Assembly: GCA_009692505.1 (NCBI GenBank)
Contig: SHZC01000005.1
Span: forward strand, 745-64,744
Length of the DNA stretch: 64,000 bases
Reading direction: 5' to 3'
Origin: Myxococcales bacterium
GTDB taxonomy: Bacteria; Myxococcota_A; Bradymonadia; UBA7976; UBA1532
Shown here piece by piece: positions 9,716 through 61,800 of this stretch (position 1 is the first letter of the stretch; each line of letters starts with the position of its first letter). The notes beneath the pieces were generated by a model, which made no database searches, had not been told where the DNA came from, and was given only the letters and a program-made list of their open reading frames with translations. Made by a program: the position numbers and the translations under genes.

Positions 9716-9794
9716 CGCTCATTTTCCTCTCGATTACGGCTCGTCGCAGCGCATCCTAACATCCGCGCCCCAGACTCCGACGGACGAGTATTTC

Positions 9795-23690: not shown

Positions 23691-23810
23691 GCGCGCGCTC
23701 CTTGAGCACTGACGGACGGGGATGATGGCGGGTCAAGGACTATAGTCGCGCCGTTGGGGACTGACAACGCCCGGCGGCTTGCGTTAGGGTCGGCCAGAAG
23801 AGCCCGACTG

Positions 23811-36533: not shown

Positions 36534-36876
36534 GGCGACCTCAACTTCGAATCCATCGTTCGAGTATACGACCAGCGGGCCGTTCTGATCTTTAGGCAGG
36601 CGGGCGACGGCCCGGGCAGGGCAATCGCACCTTGAATCGGGACGACGTGCTCGGTGATCCCTGCGCCCCTCGAGGGGTCTGTGACGCTGGGTGAAGGCGA
36701 CTGCGTGACGCTGCGGGGGGTCGACTCCCGGCGCAGTGGCCCGGGGTGGTGCGCCCGACCCCTTGGCGGCTGACGGTGGCTCGCTCAGAGGGCGCACGCC
36801 GTCGGAGGCTCTTCGTTGGCGCGTCGGGCCGGTGTGCCCTGTTGCGGTCGCGTATCAAAGAGGTCGCCTCGACGCC

Positions 36877-38311: not shown

Positions 38312-40830
<2,519 letters not shown>

Positions 40831-40834
<4 letters not shown>

Positions 40835-42729
40835 GCCAAGACGCTCGTTTCTTCGGCGTCCAGCGCGTCGCCGAGAACGCGGGCGTCGAGGTGTTGGGCC
40901 CGCAGATTCAGCTCGCTTGCGGTGTCGGTCCGCCCTGTCAGCTCGTGAATCTCCGCGAGGAAACGGAAGGCCTGAGCGAAGGAGGGATCACTCGAAACCG
41001 CGCGTCGCACCAAGTCCTCGCCTTCGGCCAAAGCCTCCGACGACCCGGCCACGGCGAACAGGGCCCGCCCATAATGCGCGATGTACAGCGGCTCCTCCGG
41101 ACGCGCGGCATGGGCTCGGGCGAAGGCCTCATTCGCCGCCGCGAGCTCACCTTTGCGCCAGTGGGCCTCACCCGCGCGGAACCACTCCTCGGCGTCGAAC
41201 ACCGGGAACATCGACGGCACGGCGTTCACGGCGGGCAGTTGCGCGTCGTAGCTCTCGCGCAGCCGGGGGTCCGAGAGCACGCCGAAAGCCTGCCCGACCT
41301 TGATGAAGACCTCCTTCGCGCGGAGCCGAACATCGAAGTCGGGATGTTCAACGAAGCGGTCGGGATGAAAGTCCCGGCAGATCGCCAAATATGCGGCCTC
41401 GAGCGCGGCCTCGTCTGCGCCGCGTGGAAGCCCCAAGACCGCGTAGTGCGTGCCGCCGCGAGTGGCGAGGTAGCGGGCGAGGACCTGTTCGGCGGTCGGG
41501 TCGGACGTGTGTGGCGTTTGAGCGTCGAGCTGCTCTTCGGTGTCGAGGATGTACTCGAAGGCGACCCGCCCCGGCAGCGTAGACTGCTCCGGCAAGACGT
41601 CGTCGTCGACGCAGACGGCCCCGGCGGCGCGCAGGACGACGAGCACCGCGGCCGCTCGAGTGGCTGCGAGTCGGAGCCCGTCGACGAGGTCAGCCACTGT
41701 CTCTGACCGGGCGATGACCTCGCTGAGCGGCGGGTCGCGCTGCACCCGATCGAGGAAGGTCTTGAGCTCGTCGACGACGGGCGTGCTCGTCAGGCGCTGC
41801 GTCCGAAGAGCCTCGAGCTGCGCCCGGAGTGCCGACGAGTCGTGACGTCGCAGGACGCCATCGATGAGCAGGGTCAGAGGGTTCATCGGGAACATGAGCT
41901 TGTCGTCGATGAACCGATCGTCACGATAAAAAGCATAACGTGCGTCGTCCCAAGTGAAACACCGCGCGACCCGCTCACGAACCTGACCCCGCAGGAGCGC
42001 GTACACCCCCTGATTGTTCAGGATGCCGAGGGCCACGAGCGCTTCACCTTGGCGCACGCCCTGGGCACGCATGAACCGGAGGACGTCGGCGTGCTGCGAC
42101 TCCGACAGCGAGCCGCGCGCAAGCAAGAAACGACCAAACGTCTCGGAGAGCAGGTTGCTCTCGGCGAAGACGGGCAGCCCCTTGAGCAGATAGATGTCGC
42201 GTCGGACGCCGTCCCTCTCGAGGCGCAGCATACCCGTGGCGGACTGGCGCAGGAGGGTGAGCAGAACGGACGAGAGCGCGTCGCCTTTGAGTTCGCCGGA
42301 GATGGAGATGGGTGCCTCGGGTTCGGGCGGCGCCCCATCGAAACGGCTCCCGAGCGCCGACTCGAGCGCCATGAGCAGCTCAGGCACCCGGAACGGCTTG
42401 AGCAGGAAACCCTGCGTGAATCCGGGACCGTGCTGGAGCAAACGCACCTGCGCCTGCGGCGACGTCGCCATGACCACAACCGGGACCTCTTCGTCCAAGC
42501 GGCGAAGGTGATCGACGACGCGCCCCCCCTCGACGCCGGGTACGAGGTGCTCGACCAAGACCAAGTCTGGCCGCCGATTTTCGAACTCGACGAGCCCGGC
42601 TTGACCATCGCGGCAGAGCGTCGGCCGGAAGCCCGATCGGGAAAGGACCTCGACCAGCTTGTCGCCGATTCGGGGGTTGTCCTCGATGATCAAAACGTGG
42701 GCGCCAGCTGATTCCAAACGACCCTTCAT
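40831..42729 (-). CDS. atypical receiver - DUF4388 - MshEN-like - J-domain - TPR protein
   Basis: The receiver domain (HVLIIEDNP...DLVLVEHLVPGVEG...VVMATS...LLKPF) has Glu at the phospho-acceptor position. Other regions are GMLRLERDGVRRDIYLLKGLPVFAESN and a J-domain (HYAVLGLPRGADEAALEAAYLAICRDFHPDRF). I chose the ATG at 42729. Confidence 0.8.
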
Positions 42730-44180: not shown

Positions 44181-44288
44181 GAGGCGCCGCTTTTTTCACA
44201 AATCGCCCGCCGTCAAAGCGACACGGCCTGGGATTGACCGACCTCTAATGCGAGCCGCAGTACGCGGCGCATCCAGAGGACCCTGCCC

Positions 44289-46493
44289 GTGGCGCCGCTC
44301 CTGCCCTTGACCTTGGCGTTCATCGCCGGCGTGAGCCTGCCCGTCGGGCTTACGCTCGCGCTCGTGGCGCTGCTCTTGATGGCGTCGCGCCTTCGCCGCA
44401 GCTCCGCCTGGGCGCAAATCGCGCTCTTCATGGTCGGGGGGATCGTGGCCGCGACCGCCCGGAGCGCGTTCGAGTCGGACCTGCCGGAGCCCACGCGAGG
44501 GGTCTTCGAGGGTGAGGTCGTCGCGCTCTCCCTGGCCGGCGAGCGGGCTTTCGTCACCTTCGAGCCTTCTACCTTTCCGGGTCTGGGTCTGAGAGTCGCC
44601 CTGGATCTGCCCGGTCCCGAGTGGGGCAAAGGGGCGCGTGTCTACTTCGTCGGAGACCTGCGGCGGCCGGACCCCGCCGACGTTCAGGGTCAGATGGATC
44701 TGCGCGAGTGGTCGACCACTCGGCGCATCGGCTTTGTGGGCGTCGGCCGGCTCTTTCTGCGGCGAGAGGCCCCGTGGTTCTCCTCGCTCATCGTCGCCGC
44801 GCGGCTGGCCTGCAAGGACGCCCTCGACGCTCAAGCCGAGGTCGAGGGCGCCGCGATCTTGCGAGGGCTCTTGCTCGGCGATCCACGAGGGCTGTCGGCG
44901 GCCACGGCGCGCGCGTTCGAGGACACGGGCACGGGCCACCTCCTCTCCGTGAGCGGGATCCACGTCGCTGGGTTGGCGACCATGGTGTACCTGCTCGTCA
45001 CCAGGGTCTGCCGCCGCTTGGGCCTTGGGCGAGCTTCGTTGTATGGGGCCCTCTTCGCCGTGCCCGCGGCGTTCGCCTTCGTACTGCTCTCGCAGTTCCC
45101 TCTCGCGGGCGTTCGCGCCGCCACCATGACCGCCGTGGCTCTCCTCGCCCGGGCGAGCGGGCGCCCAACCGTCGGCGCGAACCTGCTCGCCTTGTCCGCG
45201 CTCGTCGTCTGCCTCGAGGACCCCCACGTGATCCACGAGCCGGCGTTCCAGCTCTCATTCATCGCCGTCGCCGCCCTCGTGCTCGAGCCCCGAGTCCGCG
45301 GCCTCGCCGGTCTCTTTTGGTGCAGCGTCGTGGTCTCTGCGGCCACGGCGGGTGTGCAGTGCGCCTGGTTCGGCACCTTTGCCCCGAGCGGCGTGGTCGC
45401 CAACCTCCTGCTCATCCCCGCAGCCTCCGTCGTGCTCGTCCCTCTCGGAGCGTTGGGCCTGGTCGTCTCGGCGGTCACCCCTCTGCCGCTCTGGGTCGCC
45501 TCACACCTCGCGCTCCTCTTCGTCGCCTTCGCCGAGACCCTCGCGTCCCTGCTCGGCGGCCTCTGGGTCGTCGGGTGCGCCGGCGCGCCGCTTCTGGGTC
45601 TGCCCTTCGTCGCGCTGTGGGGTTTCCGGTGGTTCAAGGTGGTCGGCCTCGCCGTGCCGACGCTCGTGGCCTTGGGCCTGTCGACCTACATCTGGCCGCC
45701 GTCGAGCAGCGTCGACTTCGTGGCGGTCGGCCAAGGAGACGCCATCCTGATTCGCTCGGAGGGCCGGGCCGCGCTCGTGGATGTCGGGCCCGACCTGGGT
45801 GCCCGAGCGCTCCGCGCGCACCTTCGGGCCGTCGGAGTCAGCCGGCTCGACTGGGTCTTGCTCACGCATGGGCACGCCGACCACGTCGCGGGACTTCAAG
45901 CGATCCTCGGATCGACGAGCGTCGGCCTGGTCCTCGCTCGGCCCATGCGGGTCTTTGACCGGCACTGGTCGCCGGTCCGTCGGGCCTTGTCCCCGACCGG
46001 GCACACCCTCAGCGAAACCGAGCGGATGCCAACGAGCCTCGGCAGCTTTCAGCTCGACCTCGAGCCCCCCTTGCCCTCACCAAAGACCGAGAACGACGCC
46101 TCCGTGGTCCTCACTGTCTCCGGCGCGGCCCACCGCCTCCTGCTCACCGGGGATCTCGGTCCCGAGGCGGAGTTCGCGCTCCTTCGACGACCCCGGGCGA
46201 CGATCGCGGCCTTGAAGGCCCCCCACCACGGCAGCGGCAAGAGCGCGACAAAGGCTCTGCTCGACGCGCTACGTCCACGTTTGGTCGTCGTCACCGCCGG
46301 TCGACACAATCGGTTCGAGTTCCCTCGGCCGGAGATGGTGCGGCGCGTACTTGAGAGCGGTGCGTCGCTTAACGGCACTCATGCCCAAGGCACACTTCGG
46401 CTCACCCTCGACGAGGGTCTGGAGCTCACCTCCACGGTCGGTGTGCCGATCGCTCAGGAGACCCGCTTGCGCGATGACGGTCTCGACAGGTAG
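44289..46493 (+). CDS. comEC: ComEC/Rec2 family DNA internalization protein with metallo-beta-lactamase domain
   Basis: The core is polytopic. The C-terminal region contains DFVAVGQGDAILI...LLTHGHADHVAGL...LKAPHHGS. Confidence 0.85.
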   Translation: MAPLLPLTLAFIAGVSLPVGLTLALVALLLMASRLRRSSAWAQIALFMVGGIVAATARSAFESDLPEPTRGVFEGEVVALSLAGERAFVTFEPSTFPGLGLRVALDLPGPEWGKGARVYFVGDLRRPDPADVQGQMDLREWSTTRRIGFVGVGRLFLRREAPWFSSLIVAARLACKDALDAQAEVEGAAILRGLLLGDPRGLSAATARAFEDTGTGHLLSVSGIHVAGLATMVYLLVTRVCRRLGLGRASLYGALFAVPAAFAFVLLSQFPLAGVRAATMTAVALLARASGRPTVGANLLALSALVVCLEDPHVIHEPAFQLSFIAVAALVLEPRVRGLAGLFWCSVVVSAATAGVQCAWFGTFAPSGVVANLLLIPAASVVLVPLGALGLVVSAVTPLPLWVASHLALLFVAFAETLASLLGGLWVVGCAGAPLLGLPFVALWGFRWFKVVGLAVPTLVALGLSTYIWPPSSSVDFVAVGQGDAILIRSEGRAALVDVGPDLGARALRAHLRAVGVSRLDWVLLTHGHADHVAGLQAILGSTSVGLVLARPMRVFDRHWSPVRRALSPTGHTLSETERMPTSLGSFQLDLEPPLPSPKTENDASVVLTVSGAAHRLLLTGDLGPEAEFALLRRPRATIAALKAPHHGSGKSATKALLDALRPRLVVVTAGRHNRFEFPRPEMVRRVLESGASLNGTHAQGTLRLTLDEGLELTSTVGVPIAQETRLRDDGLDR

Positions 46494-48342: not shown

Positions 48343-49515
48343 ATGTCCGAGACTCGTCATCTCCGCGCGGTCCTTGAGTGCCCGACCGCGCCGCTGCATG
48401 AGTCGGAGGTGATGGCGTTTATCTCCACGTTCGGCTCGCTCCGGGGCCTGTCGGAGACGCGGGACGCCTATGGCAACCTTGTGTTGACCCATGAGGGGCA
48501 CGTCGGGCTGCCCCATGAGGGGCACGTCGGGCTGCCCCATGAGGGGCACGTCGGGCTGCCCCATGAGGGGCACGCGCCGCTCACCTTCCTCGCCGCCACC
48601 GACCATCCAGGGTGCGAGATCGTGGCCGTGGCCGGGAACATCGCTGAGGCCATCTGGCACGGGGAGCTCCCGGCCGCCTCCATCGGGGACGCCCGGCTCA
48701 GGTTCTTCGGCTCCAACGTCCCCCGCGCGGCCCGGATCACGTCTCTGTCGACCCGGACCACGCCTGGGGGTGAGGTCGTCGTGGATCGTCTGCTGTTGAG
48801 CCCCGAGGGCCGGGTTCATGTCGGCGACTTCGGCGTGCTGGACTTCCCCGGTGTGTCGACGGAGGGCGAATGGCTACGCGCTCGCGGGGCGTCTCAGCTG
48901 GTGGGCACCGGCCTCCTCCTCGAGCTGCTCGATCGGCTCGTGCTTGGGCGGCTCGTTCTTGGGCGCTCGACGGCTCGTGTACAAGCCGTCTTCGTTCGCG
49001 CCTCGGTCCTCATGCACGCAGGCGCGCTCGCCGCGCTGAAGAGCGGGATCTTCTTGGCCGGGCAGTCAGTGATCTCCGTGCACGGCTGCCCGGAGCAGCC
49101 GGGGGCGAGCTGCGGGGGCGGGCCGGTCCTCCGCCTCGGGGACGCCCTGGGCCTCTACGACCCGGGCCTGTGCCGAGCCTTGGCGCAGATGGCATCAAGG
49201 CATCACTTGAGCGACGGACACCCCTTTCAGGTCGCGCACCTCCCGGTGGGTCACTCCGACGCAGGCGTGCTTGGACTCCATGGCCTGTCGACGGCGGCCA
49301 TCACCGTCCCGATTCGGGGCGACGGAGAGCTCGGACAGGGGCGGCAGCCCGAGTGGTTCTGCACGAGCGACGCGCTCGCCTGTGTCGACCTCATGGCCAC
49401 CATCATCTCGAACTGGCAGGGACCAGAGACGGCGATCCGTGTGGCGGCAGAGAGGCGCGCCTTGATCGCAGAGGCCTTTGCGGGTTCCCTGCCCCGGCTC
49501 CGGGGCGCGTCGTGA
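48343..49515 (+). CDS. M42/M20-fold peptidase-like protein, probably non-catalytic
   Basis: The layout resembles M42 (HESEVMAFI...DAYGNLVL...LAATDHPG...GPVLRLGDALGLYDPGL...SDAG). The EE and some metal-ligand positions look substituted. Confidence 0.5.
   Translation: MSETRHLRAVLECPTAPLHESEVMAFISTFGSLRGLSETRDAYGNLVLTHEGHVGLPHEGHVGLPHEGHVGLPHEGHAPLTFLAATDHPGCEIVAVAGNIAEAIWHGELPAASIGDARLRFFGSNVPRAARITSLSTRTTPGGEVVVDRLLLSPEGRVHVGDFGVLDFPGVSTEGEWLRARGASQLVGTGLLLELLDRLVLGRLVLGRSTARVQAVFVRASVLMHAGALAALKSGIFLAGQSVISVHGCPEQPGASCGGGPVLRLGDALGLYDPGLCRALAQMASRHHLSDGHPFQVAHLPVGHSDAGVLGLHGLSTAAITVPIRGDGELGQGRQPEWFCTSDALACVDLMATIISNWQGPETAIRVAAERRALIAEAFAGSLPRLRGAS
48490..48574. repeat. 3.5 x 24-bp in-frame tandem repeat (HEGHVGLP)
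   Basis: The unit catgaggggcacgtcgggctgccc starts at 48490, 48514 and 48538, with a partial copy at 48562. Confidence 0.95.
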
Positions 49516-51935
49516 ACCAGACGACACGGCTCCCCGTCGTGAGCAAGACGGCGCGATCTCTCGCCGTAAGCAAGACGGCGCGCCTCCTCGCCACCTTGGC
49601 CGTTGGGGCAACGGTCGCTGTCTGCGCCACGAGCTTCGCCTCGAGGCCGCTGGTCGCGCCTGCCCCGGTCGGCGTGGCGGATTTGGCCTCACGGCCGCTC
49701 GAGCCCAGCGGGCCGGAGCGGCCCCCGGCTGCGGGGTTTCGTCGGATCTCCGACGCTGATCTGCGCGCCCTCTCGCTCGGCCCCCAGGACAAGGCCGCCC
49801 GCGACGCGCTCGCTCAGGGTCGCTTCGCGGACGCGGCCCGATCCATCGCCGCGACCTCGCCGGAGCAGCGGTTCGCCCAAGCCTATAGCGCCTCACGGGC
49901 CTCGGACTTCGAGAGGGTCAAGGACGTCCTCTCGGGTCCGCAGGACTTCGGCGTCCTCTCCGCCGACGTTCGTCTGCTGCTCGCGGAGGCCGAGGTGGAG
50001 CTCGGGCACGCCGACACCGGCTTGAGCCTCGTCGCCCTTGAGACCTCCGGCTTGGGGCGTCGACTTCGGCTCCGTGCCCTGCGTGAGGTCGGGCGGCTCG
50101 TCGACGCTCGGGCCGTCGCGTCTGCGCTTGTGGCTTCGGGCCTCCCCGACGACGTCGCCTACGGGCTCCTTCAGCTCGCCACGCTCGAGGTCCTCGAAGG
50201 GCAGCGCGCCAAAGCTCTGCCCCACCTTCGCCGGCTCGACGTCGAGTCTCCGCTGCATGGCTTCGCCGCCCGGGGGCGCAAGCTCGCGCTGGAGCTCATC
50301 GAGGCCTCGCCGTCTCTCGCCGCGGCCTACGAATCCCGCACGCCCGTCGAGGTCCTGACGCGCGGGGAGAAGCTGCTCGACGCGCACCAAAACGCGGACG
50401 CCGTGACGGAGCTCTCCTCGCTATCAGGCGTGACCCTTCGCGGGGCCGAGCTGTGTAAACATCGCTACCTGCTCGGGCGGGCCCATCGCAAAGCACGCCA
50501 GTGGAAAGACGCCCTCGGAGTCCTCACTGAGGCCGTGACGACCTGCAAGAAGGCGGCGAGCGACCTCGAACCCTGGGCGCTCTTTCAGTTCGGGGCCGTT
50601 CAGGAGCGCCTCTCCAAAGAGGACGCCGCCGCCGCGACGTATACCTCCCTGATCGAGCACCACGGGCAGCACTCTTTGGCCGACGACGCCGGCTTCTTCC
50701 TCGTGCGCCACACCCTCGACGACAAGAAGGACTTCAAGGCCGCGCGACGCCTCGCCGAGCGACTCGTCCGGGAGCACCCGACGGGAGATCTCGTCGAGGA
50801 GGCCGTCTTCTTCGTCGTCGTCGCCGCGCTCGTCGACGGTCGTTGGGACGACGCAGCGGAGGTCATGGCCCTCTACGACCGCCTGCCGCGCCCCGACTTT
50901 CGGGATCACGACGCCGGTCGCACGTCGTACTGGCGTGGTCGAATCGCCGAGCACGCCGGTCGCGCCGCCCTCGCCTCGGCCCACTACACCTCCGTCCTGT
51001 CGACGTACCCGCTCGGCTGGTACTCGCTGTTGTCCTATGCACGCCTGCGGGAGGCCGATCCAAAGTCCGCGCGCGTCGCCTTTCGACGCGCCATGACCAC
51101 CGACGTCGACCGGCCCTCCCTGCCTGGGATCGACCCGAGCCACTTCGCCTTCGATCTCCCAGCTGGACCGCCCCTTGAGCGCGCCCTCCTCCTGACGCGC
51201 CTCGGTCTGGCCACGGCGGCCCGTGAGGCGCTCGGCCCGCTCTCCGAGTCTGCGGATCCGTTCTTCCTGCCCTTCGCGCTTGATCGGGCCGGGTTTTATC
51301 GGGAGAGCCACGATCTGCTTCGACGGCAGCTCGACGTCTTCCGACGTTTCACGCCGAGCGGTAGCGGGCGCAACCTCTGGACCATCGCGTTTCCGGCGCC
51401 CCATCGGGACCTCGTCGATCGGCACGCGAAGTCGGCCGGCATCCCCCCCGCGTTCGCCTGGGCCATCATGCGGGAGGAGAGCGGCTTCAACCTGGCCATC
51501 GAGTCTTCGGCCAACGCCATGGGCCTCATGCAGCTCATCGTGCCCACCGCCAAGCGCACGGCTCAGATGCTGAAGCTCGACCCCGAGACGGTTGATCGTG
51601 CGGCCCTGACGGACCCCGACTTGAACATCCGCCTCGGGACCCGCTACCTCGCTTACGTGCAGGAGCGCGCGGGGGGCAAGAACGCCTTACCTCTGCTCCC
51701 AGCGGGCTACAACGCGGGTGAGGGCGCGCTCTTGCGCTGGCTCGGTCAACGCGGCGGGCTGCCGATGGACCTCTTCGTCGAGACGATCCCGTTCGAGGAG
51801 GCCCGCTGGTATACGAAGCGCGTGGTCGCCTCGTATGCCGTCTACCGCTACCTGTATTTTGGGGGCGAGACCGCAGATGACCCCGTCCCGTACTTCGGCC
51901 AGAAGCTACCGAGGCCCGAAGGAAAGGGACGTTGA
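49512..51935 (+). CDS. soluble lytic transglycosylase (Slt70-like) with superhelical N-terminal domain
   Basis: The C-terminal SLT motif is AWAIMREESGFNLAIESSANAMGLMQL...YNAG. The GTG start overlaps the upstream stop (GTGA). Confidence 0.8.
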   Translation: MNQTTRLPVVSKTARSLAVSKTARLLATLAVGATVAVCATSFASRPLVAPAPVGVADLASRPLEPSGPERPPAAGFRRISDADLRALSLGPQDKAARDALAQGRFADAARSIAATSPEQRFAQAYSASRASDFERVKDVLSGPQDFGVLSADVRLLLAEAEVELGHADTGLSLVALETSGLGRRLRLRALREVGRLVDARAVASALVASGLPDDVAYGLLQLATLEVLEGQRAKALPHLRRLDVESPLHGFAARGRKLALELIEASPSLAAAYESRTPVEVLTRGEKLLDAHQNADAVTELSSLSGVTLRGAELCKHRYLLGRAHRKARQWKDALGVLTEAVTTCKKAASDLEPWALFQFGAVQERLSKEDAAAATYTSLIEHHGQHSLADDAGFFLVRHTLDDKKDFKAARRLAERLVREHPTGDLVEEAVFFVVVAALVDGRWDDAAEVMALYDRLPRPDFRDHDAGRTSYWRGRIAEHAGRAALASAHYTSVLSTYPLGWYSLLSYARLREADPKSARVAFRRAMTTDVDRPSLPGIDPSHFAFDLPAGPPLERALLLTRLGLATAAREALGPLSESADPFFLPFALDRAGFYRESHDLLRRQLDVFRRFTPSGSGRNLWTIAFPAPHRDLVDRHAKSAGIPPAFAWAIMREESGFNLAIESSANAMGLMQLIVPTAKRTAQMLKLDPETVDRAALTDPDLNIRLGTRYLAYVQERAGGKNALPLLPAGYNAGEGALLRWLGQRGGLPMDLFVETIPFEEARWYTKRVVASYAVYRYLYFGGETADDPVPYFGQKLPRPEGKGR

Positions 51936-51945
51936 GCCGGGGTTC

Positions 51946-54900
51946 TTAGAGGTCGGAGACGAGGACGTCGAGGCCCTCGGGGAAGCCGGAGGTCCGGGCG
52001 TTCCAGTTGAAGCTCGACACCCAGAGGCGGGCGCCGTCGGTCCGGGCGCGGGTATAGAAGCCGAACGCGCCGATGTACTCGAACTCCGCGCCGCGGATCG
52101 TCTGGCGCATCCAGACGCCCTCCGGGGTTCGCCGTGTCACGAGCAGGTCCTGGCTCGTGGCGTCCTGGTAGACGATCAGGGGGAGCCCTGCCGGATCGAA
52201 TCGGACATTGCAGTCTTCGCCGACGACGTGCACAGCCCAGCTTCGACCGTCGTCCTCCCGGATGCCATCGTCGACGAGCTCGTCAATACCCAACTCCGGG
52301 GCGAGGTATCGCAAGGAGTCGGTCAGGCCGTCCTGAAAGCAGAGGTGCGTATTGCCCATGGCGTCGACCGTCAGATCGACGTTGCTGCCCATGTCGCCCT
52401 CGAGGCTCGGCACGCCGACACCGTATCCGGCGAGCTGCTGAGGCTCTCCGAAGCCCGCCTCGGCGAAGCGTGACGACCAGAGCTGACCGAAGGTCCGGTC
52501 GTACCAGGCGACCACCGGGAAGCCCTGGAGATCACGGGTCTGCGTGGTGAAGAGGCCCGTCCCCTCAGGGTAGCCGGGGGGCGCAGGCGGCACCTCGACG
52601 ACAGCCTGACAGGCACCTTCGACGCAGGCCTCGCCCATGCCGCACATCCCGCACTGGTTGGTCCGCGTGACGCAGGCATCTGTGGCCGCGAGGCAGGCCT
52701 CCGAACGATCACAGAGGCCGCCGCAGGGCGCGTCGAGCACGCTGCGCGTGAGCGTGAAGGGCGCGAGCCAGTCGTCGGCGGTCGCCGGCGTGGGGTTCTT
52801 GGCCAAGAGGTACCGGACCTCGCTGACCCAGGCGTCGGCGTCGTGTCGTCGGGCGACCCTATAAGCAATGCCGGGCACGCCTCGGGCGTCGACGCTGATG
52901 GACGCCCATCGGCCCGCGTCCCCTTCGAGGTCGAGCGTGATCTTGGTGAACGAGTAGGTGCCGTCTTCGGCCCGGATACCCAAGGCGTACTTCAGCGACT
53001 GGTTCGTGACATCACGATAGGCGACGTGCAGGTGCCCCTCTGGGCCGGCGGCGATGGCCGTGTCGGTGCCGACATCGTCGCCGTCCTCCTTGACCCCGCC
53101 GCGGGGTCCACTCGGGGCTCCGACGACCTCAGCACCCTCGGGCACTCCGTCCACGAAGGTCCACTGAAACGTCAGGTCGTCGGCGTTGTACGAGCCCACG
53201 ACCAGGTCGCCGTAAGTGTCCGCATACGCGCTGAAGTGGGCCTGACCCCCGTGCAGGACGAAGTCGCTGAACCGCCCGATGGAGCCCAGCTCGATGGGGT
53301 GCTTCTCGATGCACATGCACTGACCGTTCTCGAGCAGGCAGCTGTCCTCGCTGACCATGCCCTCAGCAAAGACCATCGGCTCGTAGCCGGCATCGCAGGT
53401 GAGCCCGGCGCAGGCCTCGGGCAGAGGCTCGCAGGCGGCGTTGGCTCGGCAGCAGAACTGCCCGTCCGGGCAGCCGTCCGGGCAGGGCGGGCCGCACTCA
53501 CACATCCCCGTCGCCGCGCACAGGGCGGGCGCGCCATTGTCGCAGCTGATCGCGGTGCAGGCGTCCGGGTCCTCGTCGCAGCCGAGCAAGATGCAGCGAT
53601 TGACGCCGGCCACCAAGCGGCAGACCCGGCCGTCCCCGCAGTCCTCATCCGTCTCGCACTCGCCCACATTGACCGCGCCCATGTCCCCGCCGTCGGACTC
53701 GGGCCGTTGCGACATATCTTCGGCGCCCTTCTCGCGTCCGGCCGTGCTGTCGTCACAGGCGCCGAGGAGAGCCGCAACCGCGAACAGCGCCGCGAGCACG
53801 ACTCGAGCCGACTGCCCACGACGGCGCAGGACAAGCCCGATCAGGAGAGGGGCGAGGCCGAGCAGCGCGAACGGGCCAGGCGCGCCTCCACGACCCGGCA
53901 GGATGCAGCCACAGTCCCCGCAGCCCCCAGCGGCGGCGGCCGGGTTCGTTCGCTCCTCGTGGGACGCCCGCCCGATGAGTGGGGTCGCCGCGGCCACGAG
54001 CACGGCCTCGGTGGTATTGCCGGTCTGATCGACGGCGCGCACCTCGACCCTCTCGGTCGCGTGGGCGTCTATCTCGAAGATCGGCGAGCCGTCCTCGTCT
54101 GCGAGTCGGACGCCACTCGAGCTGAGAGGCTTGAAGTCGCCGTCACCGATTCGAACCGTGAGCACCAGCTCGTCAAGTGAGTTGACGATGTCCGAGATCC
54201 GGGCCTTGGCGTGCGAGCCCTCGCGGGTCAAGGTGAGCTCCGGCGCCACGCTGTCGATGATCACGTTGAGCACCGCCGGGGTCGCATCGAGCGAGCGGTA
54301 GTCGTCTATACGCCGCGCCCGAACCTCGACCTGGTGTTTGCCCTGCCACCACAACATGGGGCTGCGGATGACCATGTCCTGGGCGGGCGTAAACGCGCTC
54401 CACGTCCCCTGATCGACGCGCCACTGGTACTCCATCGGCGCCTCGTCGGTTGTGCCATCGAGGGCGTCCACATGAATCCGGACGTGCGGCCGGCGGGAGG
54501 TCTCCCCGGTGGCCAGCGCGCTCGCCTCGAAGTCCGCCGTCTCCGGGATGTGGACCTCGATCGCCTCGGCGAAGGTGTTCACGCTGAAGCGGGCCTGCAT
54601 AGCCATCTCCTCGACCGGTATGCGCTCGAGATCCGCGAAGATGCCCAAGAACGTGTTGTTCTCGATGCCGGTGATGGACCCCTCCTGGAGGTTGAGCGCG
54701 TAGCCAAGCACATCCGGCAGTTGAACGGGCGCAGAGAGGCCGCCGACGAGGCTCGGCAGCAGCGGTCCGATGAGCGCGGGCAGGATGGCGGCGAGCGCGT
54801 TGGGATCGTCGCGCATGACCTCGCCGTTGTGGGCGACGACGTTGCGCAGGGCCATGGAGAGGTCGCCGAGCACGGGGATGATGCCGTTGTCCGGCGAGAA

Positions 54901-56364
54901 CGCGACGGCGATCGGGACGGTCACGTCGGTGCTCAGGCTGAAGATGCGGACCCAGCGGCCCTCGATGAAGGCGTGGAAGTCGAGCCAGAGGTCGGGGATC
55001 TCCAGGGTCATGAGCGGATCAAGGACCCGGTACTGGCCTTCGTTCTCGGGATCGGGCTCGGTGGTGTTGGCCCCGAAGGTGGCGATCGGCACCTCTTGCG
55101 GTGACATCGTGATGGCGAGCGCCTGCGCCCCGCGGGTCAGACGAGGCAGGTCGCGCAGGAAGAGGCTGAAGGTCGATACGCTGATCTGCTCGATGGTGTC
55201 GCTCGTGATCGAGAGGCAGAGCGTGCCGGCCGAGAAGACCGCCCAGAGGCCGTGCTTTACGAAGAGGTCGCTGATGCCGATGCCCACCTCGTAGGGCCGA
55301 CCGAGGGGATCGACGGACGTCGTCAGCGCGACTGCGCGCGGGGGCTCCATGTCGAGCGGCGGCTGGGGTCGATCGGGCACGCAGCGGTTCTTGTCGGCCC
55401 GCGCACCGGCGATGATGCCCAGGGAGAGACCTTGATTCTCCACGTCGACGTAGCTGCCGGGCGTAATAAGGTATTGGACCACGGCCTTGAGGCCCGGAGA
55501 GAAGCTCGAGAGCATGGCGCCGACGTCGAGGGCACCTTCGACCCCGAGCTGGGCGGGGATGCACTGACCGTCGAGCATGCAGCGGCCCCCTTCGCACAAG
55601 GCTCCGCCCGCGCTCGGGCAGTCGACGTCCGTCTCGCAGGCGCGGCAGGTGAAGTCCTCTACGAAGCCGTTGACGATGCCCACGAGCTGACCGTCGATGA
55701 ACCCTTGAACCGCCGTCAGCAGGAAGTCGCCGATGAAGGGAAAGTTGATGAACCCGTCGATGGCGTCACAGAGGAAGCCCAACGCGCCGCCATTGTTGTG
55801 GAGGCGGATGTCGAGGTTCGCGAGCTGATAAACGGGGTTCTCGATGGCGAAGGTCAGATCCCGCGTGGGGTCAGGCGTCGAGAGGTTCAAGTCGACGCTG
55901 ATCGGGAAGCCCGGGCCGCGGATGGCCAAGGTGCAATCCACGATGGGGTTCGCGAAGACGTTGATGATCGCGTCGAACTGCTGAAAGGTCAGCGTGGCGC
56001 GGATGCGGCTGGTCTCGACGAGCTCGAGATCGACGTTGCCGATGGCGATGTCAATCGGGCAGCCGACGGTGCCGTCCGGGCACTGCCCGCCGCAGAAGCC
56101 CCACTGAACGAGGCCGATGATGTCGCCGCCTTGGCCAGGCAGGCAGATGTTCAGGCCTTCGGGCAGCGCCTGGCTCAAGAGGGGCTCGAGGTTGTCCTCG
56201 AGGAAGCCGACGCCATGCTCGGTGAGGCGAACCTGAACCGCACTGTGGACCCTGTCCTTATGCGGGAACGGGGGGCCGGAAGCGCAGCCTCCACAGCCGC
56301 TGGACTGCCCGCACGCGGCGAGCAGGAGCAGAAGAAAGACACTTCGAAGCATGAGCTTGAACAT
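51946..56364 (-). CDS. very large lipoprotein with an internal MYXO-CTERM-like segment followed by a second lipobox
   Basis: The N-terminus is MFKLMLRSVFLLLLLAACG. A Y_Y_Y-like Ig module is present (EYQWRVDQGTWSAF). The internal segment is GGCGDCGC...PFALLGLAPLLIGLVLRRRGQSARVVLAALFAVAALLGAC. The C-terminal half contains repeated ...LKYA/...LRYL strands that look propeller-like. Confidence 0.7.
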   Translation of the reverse strand: MFKLMLRSVFLLLLLAACGQSSGCGGCASGPPFPHKDRVHSAVQVRLTEHGVGFLEDNLEPLLSQALPEGLNICLPGQGGDIIGLVQWGFCGGQCPDGTVGCPIDIAIGNVDLELVETSRIRATLTFQQFDAIINVFANPIVDCTLAIRGPGFPISVDLNLSTPDPTRDLTFAIENPVYQLANLDIRLHNNGGALGFLCDAIDGFINFPFIGDFLLTAVQGFIDGQLVGIVNGFVEDFTCRACETDVDCPSAGGALCEGGRCMLDGQCIPAQLGVEGALDVGAMLSSFSPGLKAVVQYLITPGSYVDVENQGLSLGIIAGARADKNRCVPDRPQPPLDMEPPRAVALTTSVDPLGRPYEVGIGISDLFVKHGLWAVFSAGTLCLSITSDTIEQISVSTFSLFLRDLPRLTRGAQALAITMSPQEVPIATFGANTTEPDPENEGQYRVLDPLMTLEIPDLWLDFHAFIEGRWVRIFSLSTDVTVPIAVAFSPDNGIIPVLGDLSMALRNVVAHNGEVMRDDPNALAAILPALIGPLLPSLVGGLSAPVQLPDVLGYALNLQEGSITGIENNTFLGIFADLERIPVEEMAMQARFSVNTFAEAIEVHIPETADFEASALATGETSRRPHVRIHVDALDGTTDEAPMEYQWRVDQGTWSAFTPAQDMVIRSPMLWWQGKHQVEVRARRIDDYRSLDATPAVLNVIIDSVAPELTLTREGSHAKARISDIVNSLDELVLTVRIGDGDFKPLSSSGVRLADEDGSPIFEIDAHATERVEVRAVDQTGNTTEAVLVAAATPLIGRASHEERTNPAAAAGGCGDCGCILPGRGGAPGPFALLGLAPLLIGLVLRRRGQSARVVLAALFAVAALLGACDDSTAGREKGAEDMSQRPESDGGDMGAVNVGECETDEDCGDGRVCRLVAGVNRCILLGCDEDPDACTAISCDNGAPALCAATGMCECGPPCPDGCPDGQFCCRANAACEPLPEACAGLTCDAGYEPMVFAEGMVSEDSCLLENGQCMCIEKHPIELGSIGRFSDFVLHGGQAHFSAYADTYGDLVVGSYNADDLTFQWTFVDGVPEGAEVVGAPSGPRGGVKEDGDDVGTDTAIAAGPEGHLHVAYRDVTNQSLKYALGIRAEDGTYSFTKITLDLEGDAGRWASISVDARGVPGIAYRVARRHDADAWVSEVRYLLAKNPTPATADDWLAPFTLTRSVLDAPCGGLCDRSEACLAATDACVTRTNQCGMCGMGEACVEGACQAVVEVPPAPPGYPEGTGLFTTQTRDLQGFPVVAWYDRTFGQLWSSRFAEAGFGEPQQLAGYGVGVPSLEGDMGSNVDLTVDAMGNTHLCFQDGLTDSLRYLAPELGIDELVDDGIREDDGRSWAVHVVGEDCNVRFDPAGLPLIVYQDATSQDLLVTRRTPEGVWMRQTIRGAEFEYIGAFGFYTRARTDGARLWVSSFNWNARTSGFPEGLDVLVSDL

Positions 56365-56535
56365 GGATGACCCCCCGAAAAAATGGCACCTCACGCTATA
56401 GACCGCGGCAAACAGGCGTCAAGTCCGGAAATGATGGGGTAATTTGCGGCAGGGGTTGACCGCTTCTACACTCGCGCGGTCGGATCTGTTTCATGGGTCC
56501 GGACCCACGCAGTAAACCCGACGGGATCGTTTCGA

Positions 56536-58818
56536 ATGCAGGAAGGTTCGCAGTTCGGCCCTTACACCCTGATCAAGCGCATCGCGTTTGGGGGCATGGC
56601 CGAGATCCATCTCGCGAAGACCACCGGACTCGGCGGCTTCGAGAAGCTGCTGGCACTCAAGGTCATCCACCCGAAGTACTCGGAGGACCAAGAGTTCATC
56701 GACATGCTGATCGACGAGGCGAAGATCGCCGTTCAGCTCTCGCACGTGAACGTCTGCCAGGTCTTCGACCTCGGCCGGATCTCGAACACCTACTTCATCG
56801 CGATCGAGTTCATCGACGGCAAGGACCTCTATCAGCTCCTCGTGAAGTGCTCCGAGCGGGACATCAGCATCCCCCTCGACATCCTGGCGTTCATTGGCTT
56901 GGAGCTGAGCGCGGGCCTGCACTACGCCCACACCAAGAGCGACAACTATGGGAGCCCGCTCAGCCTGGTCCATCGCGACGTGAGCCCGCAGAACGTCCTC
57001 ATCTCCTATGACGCCGAGGTCAAGATCGTGGACTTCGGCATCGCGAAAGCAGCGAAGCGCAGCCGTGAGACCGAGAGCGGGGTCATCAAGGGCAAGTTTT
57101 TCTATATGTCGCCGGAGCAGGCTTGGGGTGATCCCATCGACGCTCGGACCGACGTCTTCAGCAGCGGGATCTGTCTCTACGAGATGCTGGTCGGCGAGAT
57201 GCTCTACCATGAGGAGAAGGCGCTTCTCCTCCTCGACAAGGTTCGCAAGGCCGAGATTCCGAGCATCCGAGAGAAGCGCCCAGAGGTGCCCCAGGCCTTG
57301 GAGCAGATCGTGCTGCGCGCCTTGTCGCGTGACCGGGACCGTCGCTACCAGTCCTCCGGCGAGCTGCACGCCGCGCTGTCGGGGTTCCTCTACGGGAACT
57401 GGCCGAACTTCAACCGCTCGCGGCTCGTGGAGTTCATGCGCCACGTCTTTGGCGACCAGCGGTTCGTCCTGCCGCGACCCCAGGCCAACGGACCGAAGCC
57501 CAACGAGCGCGGCTCCATGCTCGGGAACAACGGCTTCGCCTCGGGGCACAGCGTCATCTTCGACCTCAATCAGGTTGACGACCTGCCGAAGCTCCAGAAG
57601 GGTCCGAGCGCGATGCCGAGGCCGTCGCCCGTCGTGGAAGCCAGGTTCGACGAACCGGAGCCGACTACGGCGCTGAGCGAAGATCAGACCGGCAGCGTGG
57701 ACGACGACGACGACGACGACGAGCACACCATCATGGAGAGTGTGTGGGCGCCCGAGCCCGTGCGTTCTGCTCGGCCCGCAGCCGAGGACGAAGACACGAC
57801 CTCCTTGACAGCCGGGGATCTCGAGAAGGTCTCGAAGCTCTCCATGCCCGTCAACGTTGAGCAGCCGACCTCGCTGTACGCGCGGCCGGGCGAGAGTCCA
57901 CCGAAGCGGCTGAATCGGCCCGTCTCGCCGCCGCCCGCCGATGATCCCGAGCGCACGATGACGCTCGACCCCGTTGAGCTCGAGCCGACCCCGGCCGCGC
58001 AGCCCCGGGCGGTGCCCCGACCGATTCCCACCTCGCCCCCACAGACGCCGGCCCCGCCGCCCAGACCCACCGCCCAGAGTCTACGCGCGCCGCCGCCGCC
58101 GCCGCCGCCGCCGCTCGCCGATCCGGAGACGAGAGGTGGACCCCAGAAGTCGCCGACCCTGAAGCCCGAGGGCATCAAGCCGACGAAGCCCACCGTCAAT
58201 CGAGCGGCGGTCTCCGGCGCGCGCAAGGGTGATTCCAAGCTGCGTAAGCTCGGGGCGCGGCTGATGTCACCGGGCGGGCTCACGGCGATTGTCCTGGTCG
58301 CGCTCTTGGGGTACGCGGCGTTTCAGCTCCTCCCGACGTTGCTCGCCCCCCAGAAGCTCCGGGTGGCCGCCTTGGTCATCACGAGCACCCCGGCGGGCGC
58401 GAAGGTTCATGTCGATGGGGTCGACACCGGCCAGGAGACCCCGGCGCGCGTCGACAACGTCGCAGTCGGGGCCAGCCACACCGTGAAGCTGACGCTCGGC
58501 GGCTTCGACGAGCTCACCGAGAGCGTGACCATCCCGGCCTCGGACCTTCCGCCCGATGGCGAGGTCAAGCGTCGGCTCTTCCTCGTCAAGCAGCGCGGGC
58601 GAATCGAGGTCGGCTCAACCCCCGACAAGGCCGACGTCTTCGTCGACGGGAAGTTCTCTTGCGAGACGCCTTGCACCGTGGCCGACGTGGATCGGGAGAA
58701 GAACGAAGTCCGCCTCTTGCTTCGCAAGGACGGGTATCGGGACTATCCAGAGGTCATTCGATGGGGTGAAGAGACCCATATCAAGGTCGACTGGAAGCTC
58801 GCTCCCCGCGAGAGATAA
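56536..58818 (+). CDS. Ser/Thr protein kinase, membrane-anchored, with two C-terminal PEGA domains
   Basis: Kinase motifs are AFGGMAEIHLA, ALKVI, HRDVSPQNV, VDFGIAKA and SPEQ. A TM segment is present (LTAIVLVALLGYAAFQLL). The PEGA domains are ITSTPAGAKVHVDG and VGSTPDKADVFVDG. Confidence 0.9.
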   Translation: MQEGSQFGPYTLIKRIAFGGMAEIHLAKTTGLGGFEKLLALKVIHPKYSEDQEFIDMLIDEAKIAVQLSHVNVCQVFDLGRISNTYFIAIEFIDGKDLYQLLVKCSERDISIPLDILAFIGLELSAGLHYAHTKSDNYGSPLSLVHRDVSPQNVLISYDAEVKIVDFGIAKAAKRSRETESGVIKGKFFYMSPEQAWGDPIDARTDVFSSGICLYEMLVGEMLYHEEKALLLLDKVRKAEIPSIREKRPEVPQALEQIVLRALSRDRDRRYQSSGELHAALSGFLYGNWPNFNRSRLVEFMRHVFGDQRFVLPRPQANGPKPNERGSMLGNNGFASGHSVIFDLNQVDDLPKLQKGPSAMPRPSPVVEARFDEPEPTTALSEDQTGSVDDDDDDDEHTIMESVWAPEPVRSARPAAEDEDTTSLTAGDLEKVSKLSMPVNVEQPTSLYARPGESPPKRLNRPVSPPPADDPERTMTLDPVELEPTPAAQPRAVPRPIPTSPPQTPAPPPRPTAQSLRAPPPPPPPPLADPETRGGPQKSPTLKPEGIKPTKPTVNRAAVSGARKGDSKLRKLGARLMSPGGLTAIVLVALLGYAAFQLLPTLLAPQKLRVAALVITSTPAGAKVHVDGVDTGQETPARVDNVAVGASHTVKLTLGGFDELTESVTIPASDLPPDGEVKRRLFLVKQRGRIEVGSTPDKADVFVDGKFSCETPCTVADVDREKNEVRLLLRKDGYRDYPEVIRWGEETHIKVDWKLAPRER

Positions 58819-58845
58819 CAGCCGCCTGGACCCCTTGGAGCCCCG

Positions 58846-61800
58846 ATGTTCCCGATCCGTCGCATTCTTTGCTGTGCCGCCCTCACCGCCGCCTGCGCGG
58901 CCGTGGAGGACGGGAGCAACGCCGCTGATACGACGGGCTCTTCACCCACCTCAGGCTCGCAGGTGCCTGATCCGAGCGGCGATGGCCTGGGGCCGGACGT
59001 CGGCCAGCCGGTCGGGTGCCGCGACTTCGATAGGGACGGCGCGAGCGTCGGAGAGGGCTGCAGCCCAGTGGACTGCAACGACTCGACGGCCCTGATTGGC
59101 CCGGACGCGCCGGAGCAGTGCAACGGCATCGACGATGACTGCGATGGGATCGTCGACGACGACCTCATCGGGCCGGACTGCGCCTTGACCCGAGGGATCT
59201 GCGCGGGCTCGCGACAGCGTTGTCTCGTCGGGGCCTGGGCCGCCTGCGATGCGGCGACCTACGGCGAGAGCTTCGAGGTCACCGAGGCCGCCTGCGACGG
59301 CGTCGACAACGACTGCGATGGAAGGGTCGACGCCGACTGCCCCTGCGACGCGGGCCAGACACGCCCCTGTGGGGTCGACGAGGGGGAGTGCCACCAAGGC
59401 GTTCAAGCCTGCTTAGGCGAGCAGTGGGGCCCCTGCGAAGGGGAGACGACCTCGGCAGACGAGCTCTGCGATAGCAAAGACAACGACTGCGACGACCTCG
59501 TCGACGAAGCGCTCACCGAGGCCGCGCCTGACTGCGGCCTGAACCTCGGGATCTGCGCGGGCTCGAGGGCGACGTGCAGCGGTGGGCCGGGCTGGTCGAC
59601 GTGTGGACCGCTCGAGTACGGAGACCGGTTCACCGCCGACGAGACCGACCTCGACTGCGACGCGCTCGACAACGACTGCGACGGCGCGACCGACGAGCAG
59701 TGTGCCTGTCTCGACGGGGCTGATCAGCCCTGCGGGCTCGACGTCGGGGCCTGCGTGCCCGGTATCCAGACCTGCGTGCGGGGGTTCTTTGGTGAGTGCC
59801 GGGGGCAGGTCTTGCCGCGAGACGAGTCCTGTGACGGCACGGATCAAGACTGCGACGGCACCGTCGACGAAGCCCTTGCCCCCCTCGCCTGTCCGCTCCA
59901 GAACGGCGTCTGCGCGGGCAGCGTCCGCGAGTGTTCGGGCCTCGCCGGGCACGCCCCCTGCCAGGCGCATGTGTACTCGGCCCATCACCCGCTGTATGTG
60001 CCCGTGGAGAGCAGCGAGCACTGCGACGGCCTCGACAACGACTGCGATGGGCTCATCGACGAGGAGTGCGACTGCGTGGATGGCACAGCTCAGGCCTGCG
60101 GGGTCAACGTCGGCCTGTGCACTCAAGGCGAGCAGCTCTGTGTGGGCGGGCGCTTCGGCGCGTGCGACGGGACTGCGCCCCTTGGCGAGGTCTGCAACGC
60201 CGCCGACGATGACTGCGACGAGCGCGCCGACGAGGGTATATTAGGCCAGCCCTGCCCCCTCCAGGATGGGGTCTGCGCCGGTTCGCGTAACCGCTGTCTG
60301 GGCGGTCAGCGCACCGTCTGCGGCGCCGACGAGTATGGCGGGGCCTGGCAGCTTGAGGAGTCTTTCTGCGACGGCCGGGACAACGACTGCGACGGGCAGA
60401 TTGACGAGGGCTGCGACTGCGTCGACGGAGAGGTTCAGGTCTGCGGCAGCGAGGTGGGTCTGTGCACCCGTGGCGCGCAGACCTGCGTCCGAGGTCGCTT
60501 CGGACCCTGCGAGGGCTCGATTCAGCCGGCCGTCGATCTCTGCGACGGCCGCGACGAGGACTGCGATGGCCAGAGCGACGAGGCCCTGATCGCGCCCGCC
60601 TGCCCCAACCAGGTCGGGGTCTGCGCGGGCGCGCTTCAGCTCTGTGCCGGGGCCCTTGGATTTTTGAACACCTGCGCGCCGGATGAGTACGGCCCCCGCT
60701 TCGTGCTCGACGAGACGGACGCCCACTGTGACGGGCTCGACAATGATTGCGACGGCCAGAGCGACGAGGCCTGCGAGTGCCAGCCCAACGGTCCAAGGCC
60801 CGCCTGCGGCAGCAATACCGGCGAGTGCCGGACGGGGCTCTTGCTCTGTGAGGGTGGCCACTTCGGGGCGTGCGAGGGGGAGGCTCGGCCGGTCGTTGAG
60901 CGGTGCAATGGCCTCGACGACGACTGTGACGGACTGACGGACGACGCGCTCATCGCGCCGGCCTGCGCCTTGAGCCGTGGGGTCTGCGACGGCTCGGTCC
61001 AACGGTGCGGAGGGGCCGACGGATGGCTCGCGTGCGAGGCCGTCAACTACGGGCCCAACTATCGTCTCGTTGAGGCTGCAGCCGATTGCGACGGCCGCGA
61101 CAATGACTGCGATGGTCGCTTTGACGAGGCCTGCCCGGCGCCGCCGATCGTCATCAGCGAGGTCTACTACAACAGCCCCGGACGAGACGGCACCGCCGAG
61201 TTCATCGAGATCTCCGGGCCGGTGGGCACCGCGCTCTCTGGCCTCACTCTCGAGGCGGTCAACGGCAACGACGGTCTGGTCTACGAGCGCATCGGGCTCA
61301 ACGGCCGCGTGATGCCAGCGATCGGTTCCTTCCTCATCGTCGCGCCGACCGCCTCGCCGCTGCTCCAGGACATCGCGGACCTCGTGGCTCCGGGGGCCGA
61401 TCTCCAAAACGGGCCGGACAGCTTGCGGCTCGTGTGGAACGGCGACGTCGTCACGGACGCCTTGGGCTATGGGGTCTTCGTCAACCCGGCTCACTTTGCC
61501 GGTGAAGGCGAGGCGGCACCCAACGCCGCCGAGCAGAGCTTGACCCGGAACGTCGACAACGCCGACACCGACAACAACGCCGTGGACTTCGTGCCCAGCG
61601 GCCAGTCCGCCTCCGGGCTGCCGACGCCGCGGGGGGCGCCTCTGCCTAGGCTCCACCTCGCCTTACGTTGGGATCTCGACGACACGGATCTTGATCTGCA
61701 CCTGCAGCGCCCCGGCGCGGCCTTCCGGGACGCGACGGGAGACTGCAGCTTCAGCAATCGTCGCCCGATTTGGAATGTGGGCGGGGGGGATCCCCGTTTC

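Follow-up and report, generated by a model that had tools for sequence, protein, structure and literature searches.

Two kinds of sorting signal meet in the gene described here. One is the bacterial lipoprotein signal peptide with its Lgt/LspA lipobox, as in PROSITE PS51257. The other, the MYXO-CTERM tag, is known from proteins such as TraA of Myxococcus xanthus, in which an N-terminal signal peptide is paired with a C-terminal Cys motif (GC or GCGC), a hydrophobic helix and an Arg cluster. The tag is cleaved by the myxosortase MrtX in a Cys-dependent manner, also in E. coli, and both prior lipidation, possibly by Lgt, and surface display dependent on the type II secretion system have been proposed for tagged proteins (Guo, Haft & Wall 2025, PMC11980579). 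Myxosortases and abundant MYXO-CTERM proteins are found in Bradymonadales, and typical tags have no Pro in the helix (Haft 2023, 10.1101/2023.06.07.544157). The window analysed here, a stretch of 64,000 nucleotides from a Myxococcales bacterium of the Bradymonadia (assembly GCA_009692505.1, contig SHZC01000005.1, positions 745 to 64,744), carries a minus-strand open reading frame (ORF), 51946..56394, in which a MYXO-CTERM-like tag runs in frame into a lipoprotein signal peptide. From its sequence, this ORF probably encodes a secreted polyprotein that would be cut by a myxosortase and by Lgt/LspA into two separate, lipid-anchored envelope proteins.

Internal tags have been noted before. The sole internal MYXO-CTERM given in the passage of PMC11980579 that treats the subject is that of MXAN_5598 of M. 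xanthus, for which a fusion origin and a processed N-terminal part are suggested; sortase and archaeosortase precedents are also cited there, and one reference (ref. 46 in PMC11980579) concerns a Haloferax volcanii ArtA substrate with a non-terminal PGF tripartite structure, its cited title naming ArtA-dependent processing. MXAN_5598 likewise holds its tag between two extracytoplasmic modules, but it belongs to an unrelated family (an adhesin with an outer-membrane beta-barrel/OmpA part) and is described as a rare single case, and that passage reports no lipoprotein signal peptide after the tag, no split orthologues and no multi-unit forms. The ArtA substrate, as far as that citation describes it, and the midcut-by-XrtH proteins (NF033207) also have a tripartite sortase-type signal in the middle of the precursor, but their enzymes are an archaeosortase and an exosortase. 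We know of no second signal peptide after the tag in either. An internal signal peptide does occur in FbcH of Bradyrhizobium japonicum, a cytochrome b/c1 precursor that is cut at this site; it is likewise a bacterial membrane polyprotein in which the internal signal peptide restarts export and is cleaved, but by signal peptidase I rather than LspA, with no C-terminal sorting tag and with a polytopic membrane protein as its upstream part. Full-text literature searches returned no paper on an internal lipoprotein signal peptide, on an internal lipobox after a tag or on multi-unit forms, and our finding extends the brief remark on internal MYXO-CTERM tags to a conserved family with split forms, to the combination of such a tag with a lipoprotein signal peptide and to a wide range of multi-product candidates.

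No stop codon or frame change interrupts the ORF across the junction of the two signals, as the preliminary description of the stretch had stated. The length of 1473 aa given there was a small slip: the ORF comprises 1482 aa from a GTG at 56394 and 1472 aa from an ATG at 56364, the type of start common to all homologues and the one from which we number (the residues 823-859 assigned to the junction are right in the GTG numbering and differ in ours). The CAG codon at 53812-53814, the GTG at 53797-53799 and the N-terminal lipobox LLLAAC-G, with Cys18, all lie where they had been placed. None of A17, C18 and G19 varies among 22 full-length homologues, and the lipobox is found in 53 of 56 homologues.

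Compared with TraA, the tag shows the same succession of parts, with the Cys motif GGCGDCGC at aa 813-820 and then FALLGLAPLLIGLVL and RRR, which are kept across the family, and it has the expected partner in an N-terminal signal peptide (MFKLMLRSVFLLLLLAAC) with the conserved lipobox Cys18. The lineage, Bradymonadia/Myxococcota, is one in which myxosortases are known, and the MYXO-CTERM hidden Markov model (HMM) matches most members of the family. The window copy differs in being internal, with 623 residues after the Arg cluster (the tag is C-terminal in the relatives P0048 and P0055), in going undetected by the HMM, and in having a Pro in the helix and three Cys; its N-terminal signal carries a lipobox, so that the product would be lipidated at both ends. 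The lipoprotein signal peptide that follows has the usual positive n-region (RRRGQSAR), 15-residue h-region (VVLAALFAVAAL), lipobox (LGAC) and disordered tether, but starts at residue 847; it is N-terminal in the split forms of loci L001 and L031. The codon of the lipobox Cys, Cys870, lies at 53755-53757, and DD comes next (aa 871-872, 53749-53754). Judged by its place in the sequence, the RRRGQSAR loop is both the putative cytoplasmic tail of the tag and the putative n-region of the next signal peptide. When the window's ORFs with a high G+C content at third codon positions were scanned with a regular expression (Cys motif, hydrophobic helix, Arg/Lys cluster), the full junction was found in this ORF only; the other three matches were two out-of-frame ORFs and a segment of a ComEC-like membrane protein.

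Two further observations concern the sequences that follow lipobox Cys residues. Directly after Cys18 stands GQSSGCGGCA (aa 19-28, 56281-56310), whose conserved GCxGC resembles the Cys motif of the tag (G23 and C24 invariant, G26 and C27 at least 90% conserved). The CDD with which the mature C-half would begin is also found in a lipoprotein with MopE motifs at 7088-9718 (-). An internal translation start for the C-half was considered and rejected as a general mechanism, no Met, Val or Leu being conserved in the loop across the family; in the window, no Shine-Dalgarno-like sequence stands ahead of the GTG at 53797-53799.

In the pathway that we propose, every step of which we infer from the known Sec, Lgt/LspA and MYXO-CTERM/MrtX pathways, the N-terminal lipoprotein signal peptide would direct the protein to the Sec translocon and the BPI-like N-half would cross the inner membrane. 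The helix of the tag (aa 832-846) would halt transfer and leave RRR in the cytoplasm, where the same RRR would serve as the n-region of the second helix (aa 855-869), which would insert from inside to outside and restart export with the C-half. Lgt and LspA would lipidate Cys870 and cut before it, yielding the stalk-and-propeller C-half as an ordinary lipoprotein. The Cys motif (aa 815-820) would be lipidated in turn, after which a cut by the myxosortase, a CPBP-family intramembrane protease, would free the N-half with lipid at both ends, bound for the cell surface, and a two-helix hairpin peptide of about 50 aa would remain behind in the membrane as a waste product. The fusion would cost nothing, since the topologies of the two sorting signals complement each other, and it would offer co-synthesis and co-insertion of two partner proteins at 1:1. 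Many Cys are invariant in both halves among the 22 full-length sequences, which fits an extracytoplasmic location and would mean that the second helix must export the C-half.

Searching with the protein brought up 55 homologues, every one of them from uncultured Bradymonadia or Myxococcota. About 43 are full length, with 1380-1480 aa, an identity of 42-98% and a coverage of about 100%, and the junction is kept in about 50 homologues at 25-98% identity. In the 56-sequence alignment, C820 is invariant, R848, R849 and C870 are at least 90% conserved (C870 is invariant in the 22 full-length sequences) and so is the LIGR of the linker ahead of the tag, whereas the two helices conserve hydrophobic character only. 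Conserved Cys and Arg flanked by helices that are merely hydrophobic form the pattern expected of processing sites, and not of a plain membrane hairpin. With a strict regular expression (Cys motif, helix, Arg/Lys loop, helix, lipobox Cys), the full module was found at the homologous position in 50 of the 56 homologues; of the six that escaped it, four are truncated, split or frameshifted, and in the other two, P0008 and P0037, the module is present in the alignment but does not fit the expression. The loop contains 2 to 9 Arg/Lys across the family (at least three in 49 of 50), and the lipobox Cys is followed by Asp or Glu at +2 in 40 of 50 and by Asp at +3 in 47 of 50. The preliminary description had proposed a comparison of orthologues as a check; they mostly have one ORF, and in two lineages it is split.

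A search of GTDB species-representative genomes, seeded with the 22-sequence alignment, returned 27 loci, and in about 22 of the 24 that cover the junction the frame is uninterrupted. Of the other loci, one has the split at the junction, the frame of L014 is broken elsewhere and three run into a contig end at or before the junction. The break in L014 (5890-10133) lies inside the C-half near aa 1109, away from the junction, and is probably a sequencing error or a pseudogene. In L027 (3931-10158), the stop-free frame reaches about 650 codons upstream of the expected orthologue start (2076 codons in total), an extension that may be due to chance, the DNA being rich in GC, or may represent one more unit joined in frame ahead of the orthologue. 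The orthologue in L012 is directly preceded by a distant tandem paralogue (L012:3-3398, +; 26-28% identity) with the same architecture and junction (...AMSCAVSGPRPAPGPWAALLLLPLLALMRRRAAPVQIIAVALAALALAGCDD...), its start cut off at the edge of the locus.

These data bear on an artefact, in which a stop codon would have been lost by a sequencing or assembly error or by a very recent, non-functional fusion, one of the options of the preliminary description. The CAG at 53812-53814 is indeed one transition away from TAG. Nevertheless, a protein of the identical length of 1472 aa is found in nine independent sequences of the cluster at 90% identity or more (P0001 and eight others, from assemblies of NCBI, ENA and Logan), about 22 species-level genomes and some 50 homologues show no break in the frame, and the stop and start codons of the split forms are placed differently and in different frames. 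For this genome, an artefact is refuted by this evidence and retains next to no probability. Fusion and fission are real evolutionary events in the family, but old ones.

The split forms are provided by two lineages that carry the N- and C-halves as adjacent genes, with a tag that is truly C-terminal and a signal peptide that is truly N-terminal. In L001 (GCA_030427205.1, a 1.13-Mb contig), gene 1 encodes P0048 (843 aa), which ends in ...GGCGGCSAG...LFIVGLRRRRRGEDQ and a stop codon (also given as ...GGCGGCSAGHGSTPNVPLWALGGLLFIVGLRRRRRGEDQ and stop); after a 20-nt spacer, gene 2 begins in another frame with MSKTRLALLAALAALAFGCDDNANS (shorter: MSKTRLALLAALAALAFGCDD, MSKTRLALLAALAALAFGC). In L031, gene 1 encodes P0055 (878 aa), ending in ...GSGCSCTVGG...LFFRRSFRRA and a stop codon, and gene 2, which overlaps it by 8 nt, has a GTG start with AGGAG 9 nt upstream, reads VRKSFFSLAAWAAPMVLAGVSLGGCGGH at its start (shorter: VRKSFFSLAAWAAPMVLAGVSLGGC) and is 30% identical to the C-half of the window protein (E 3e-46). 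No other evidence speaks so strongly for halves that can function as separate polypeptides, each with a sorting signal of its own. A MopE-like gene that adjoins the split pair in L001 (10312-13848, -) has a canonical C-terminal MYXO-CTERM tag (GGCDCRADGGGPAGWWLLPMVLFGLSRRWARR and stop), so that this lineage also uses ordinary terminal tags.

The split forms also count against the transmembrane hairpin that the preliminary description had offered as its third option, in which the product would stay a single, unprocessed inner-membrane polypeptide with both domains in the periplasm and with the Cys serving, for instance, disulfides or metal binding. Such a topology fits the positive-inside rule, and a required covalent link could explain why the fusion is retained in about 22 of the 24 informative genomes. 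Besides the existence of halves made from separate genes with normal terminal signals, however, a hairpin gives no reason to keep the lipobox Cys with its D/E-D or a GC motif that an HMM recognises, and the N-terminal lipobox points to trafficking by Lol or to the surface, a route closed to a protein that helices hold in the membrane. We therefore regard the unprocessed hairpin as possible but quite improbable.

The sorting signals were compared with HMMs. TIGR03901 (MYXO-CTERM) matches 44 of 52 junction segments of the family (best E 1.9e-9) when matches are counted at E<=10 and not against the curated cut-off. The segment of the window itself has no match at E<=10, and it reaches only 2.4-6.9 bits, which is noise level, against a profile of 68 independent C-terminal tags, to which most relatives score 15-48 bits, the alignment of the window copy being colinear. 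Because both profiles fail, we do not count the window segment among the TIGR03901 members on the strength of its score. The tag of the window clade is divergent, with three Cys, a Pro/Gly-rich spacer and Pro839 in the helix. Two other models gave sub-threshold results: midcut-by-XrtH (NF033207, cut-off 45 bits), with E 0.09-0.28 for the window copy and 3.9e-4 for the best of five matching family members, and NF058595 (invert_tail, cut-off 37 bits), a recent NCBIfam model of a 'lipo-invert putative C-terminal anchoring domain', with E 0.32-8.1 for the window copy and, for 29 of the 52 junction segments, weak matches that span both helices and the Arg cluster between them (best E 0.0011). When the whole protein, the 82-aa junction and the C-half were scanned with NCBIfam and Pfam, no model exceeded its cut-off. 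The preliminary description had named failure of the HMMs as grounds for giving up the sorting-signal interpretation. That failure is real for the window's own copy with TIGR03901, yet most relatives are matched, and the combination of a MYXO-CTERM tag with a lipoprotein signal peptide draws its support from these matches, from the conservation of both motif Cys and from the two split forms.

The poor profile scores of the window clade's tag, next to a canonical lipobox, speak for partial processing, with a single signal cut, most plausibly by LspA at Cys870, and the divergent tag left uncleaved. In that case, the N-terminal lipid and the remaining hairpin would keep the N-half in the inner membrane, and the C-half would depart as a lipoprotein. 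The surface defect of the mrtX mutant is not absolute and the lipidation step is unsettled (PMC11980579), which also speaks for this possibility. On the other side, the window clade retains the invariant C820, the Cys motif and RRR, and the tags of both close and distant relatives match TIGR03901 at the aligned position. We consider partial processing unlikely, though deserving of some weight.

We retain the two-product polyprotein as the probable reading, the best supported of the three options of the preliminary description, with its cleavage inferred. Besides the two profile results for the window copy, several points weigh against it. The Pro-bearing tag of the window clade may work poorly or not at all. 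Within the 64-kb window there is no myxosortase gene and no other MYXO-CTERM-tagged or junction-bearing ORF. All processing steps are predictions, a point that also favours the hairpin. A fusion so strongly conserved could mean that the covalent link is itself functional. Finally, the literature search found no experimental report of Lgt/LspA acting on a lipobox far from a free N-terminus.

To examine whether the junction recurs in unrelated proteins, a 76-position profile of it was run with hmmsearch against 1.84 billion representative proteins, giving 339 matches at E<=1e-3. The top 150 of these 339 were broken down, with kinship to the family assessed by phmmer with either half: five are known members (P0007, P0036, P0038, P0040 and P0047), 17 are new proteins related to the family and 128 are new and unrelated. 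An internal junction occurs at least once in 115 of the unrelated proteins (one, two, three or four junctions in 92, 16, 6 and 1, respectively), so that at least 115 unrelated protein clusters, among P0085-P0229, bear an internal MYXO-CTERM-like tag joined to a signal peptide. At least one internal junction ends in a lipobox Cys in 57 of them, and only junctions without a lipobox are found in the other 58. Where the lipobox is lacking, the second segment resembles a type I signal peptide, for example ...GCGCTASNSDRSSWWAVLALFAGAALLRGRRSLRVMVMVLGAVFASPQAHAQVV in P0085; a regular expression for AxA (signal peptidase I sites) matched 86 of 87 junctions and was too permissive to be used as evidence. 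Some of these ORFs consist of several units, such as P0099 (4697 aa, five units), P0086 (4011 aa, four) and P0088 (1236 aa, four), and P0093 and P0103 are further junction-bearing examples. The units of the multi-unit ORFs examined are paralogues with 26-48% identity, up to five to an ORF and each with a signal peptide and tag of its own, and at this level of identity they are not assembly repeats; the P0086 ORF (L030:3001-15036) was confirmed on the contig DNA. From their sequences, the multi-unit ORFs are candidate multi-product polyproteins. Whether Myxococcota/Bradymonadia routinely make secretory polyproteins is a question on which we are evenly divided: in that event, a tag and the next signal peptide, of type I or lipoprotein type, would share an Arg cluster to form an excisable two-helix hairpin, and one ORF would give two to five lipid-anchored surface proteins through a myxosortase and signal peptidase I or II, the window gene being a conserved two-product example, with a BPI-like lipid binder and a propeller lipoprotein.

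The structures of both halves were predicted with AF2 from the family alignment and compared using Foldseek. The model of the N-half (predicted local distance difference test, pLDDT, 83; predicted template modelling score, pTM, 0.77) matches 1ewf (BPI; E 1.2e-18, TMt 0.65, 573 columns) and also 4m4d (LBP) and 2obd (CETP); it is predicted to be a complete two-barrel BPI/LBP/CETP (TULIP) fold, each barrel formed by a long helix wrapped by a twisted beta-sheet, and aa 596-790 match immunoglobulin (Ig) and FN3 domains (E about 1e-4). In the model of the C-half (pLDDT 89.7, pTM 0.81), a disordered tether of 31 residues after Cys870 leads to a Cys-rich stalk and a seven-bladed propeller; its best matches are the Photorhabdus lectins PLL and PHL (E 5e-14; TMt 0.66-0.71 for all but one). 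Both halves are predicted as independent, confident, Cys-rich folds of an extracytoplasmic type, and low-confidence linkers flank the junction, with pLDDT below 50 at residues 794-799 and 813-830 (Cys motif and spacer) in the N-half model. The predicted folds resemble those of BPI/LBP/CETP and the PLL lectins, but the sequences are only 8-15% identical to theirs, and no Pfam model, those of LBP_BPI_CETP included, reaches its cut-off with the full protein. These likenesses bear on possible functions of the products, not on the junction. To our knowledge, full-length BPI-like proteins are uncommon in bacteria. The host lineage is predatory, and the BPI-like N-half, as modelled, would carry a lipid anchor at both ends. 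The parts of the ORF are listed in Table 1.

Table 1. Parts of ORF 51946..56394, with residues numbered from the ATG at 56364 and coordinates in the window
Feature	Residues	Coordinates	Strand	Basis or remark
Whole ORF, candidate two-product polyprotein	1472 aa from ATG	51946..56364	-	90%-identity cluster members
N-terminal lipoprotein signal peptide of N-half, MFKLMLRSVFLLLLLAAC, lipobox Cys18		56311..56364	-	Read from sequence
Predicted BPI/LBP/CETP-like (TULIP) fold of N-half	30-590	54595..56277	-	AF2 and Foldseek
Beta-sandwich (Ig-like) domains of N-half	596-790	53995..54579	-	Model secondary structure and Foldseek
Low-confidence linker before tag, with conserved LIGR	791-812	53929..53994	-	AF2 pLDDT and alignment
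Cys signature motif GGCGDCGC; putative lipidation and myxosortase cleavage site	813-820	53905..53928	-	Sequence, alignment
Spacer ILPGRGGAPGP	821-831	53872..53904	-	Sequence, alignment
First hydrophobic helix FALLGLAPLLIGLVL; predicted stop-transfer helix of tag, outside to inside	832-846	53827..53871	-	
Arg-rich loop RRRGQSAR	847-854 (RRR 847-849, GQSAR 850-854)	53803..53826	-	Sequence, alignment
Second hydrophobic helix VVLAALFAVAALLGA; h-region of internal lipoprotein signal peptide	855-869	53758..53802	-	
Lipobox LGAC; Cys870 predicted to be residue 1 of mature C-half	867-870	53755..53766	-	
Disordered tether after lipobox Cys	871-900	53665..53754	-	pLDDT <50, residues 1-31 of C-half model
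Cys-rich stalk of C-half	901-1019	53308..53664	-	About 20 invariant Cys; pLDDT 75-95
Seven-bladed beta-propeller of C-half	1024-1472	51949..53295	-	AF2 and Foldseek

The gene lies in an envelope-rich neighbourhood. A divergently transcribed gene for a Ser/Thr kinase with C-terminal PEGA domains (window 56536-58818, +) adjoins the family gene in about 19 of 26 loci (L002-L028), with weaker kinase matches nearby in four more, and a gene for a Slt-type lytic transglycosylase (48870-51935) stands downstream in about ten loci. Two large proteins with MopE-type Cys metal-binding motifs, two S41 (tail-specific) PDZ peptidases and a ComEC-like competence protein are encoded at 7088-9718 (-), 58819-62091 (+), 33513-36854 (-), 62095-63999 (+) and 44238-46490 (+), and FHA-domain proteins at 21447-23732 and 38315-40987.

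If both signals are cut, several surface-anchored proteins would be obtained from one frame, at a fixed 1:1 ratio, through one translocon and two housekeeping systems. The family breaks the rules that place sortase-type tags at the C-terminus and the lipobox at the N-terminus, and its natural split forms serve as controls, offering a clean test of whether myxosortase and Lgt/LspA need a free terminus. HMM rules that demand a terminal position will miss ORFs with internal tags, and hundreds of long ORFs from Myxococcota metagenomes that are annotated as 'hypothetical' or 'MYXO-CTERM domain' proteins may each represent two to five mature proteins. Products with a BPI/LBP-like lipid-binding fold and a lectin-like propeller would be of interest for predatory bacteria.

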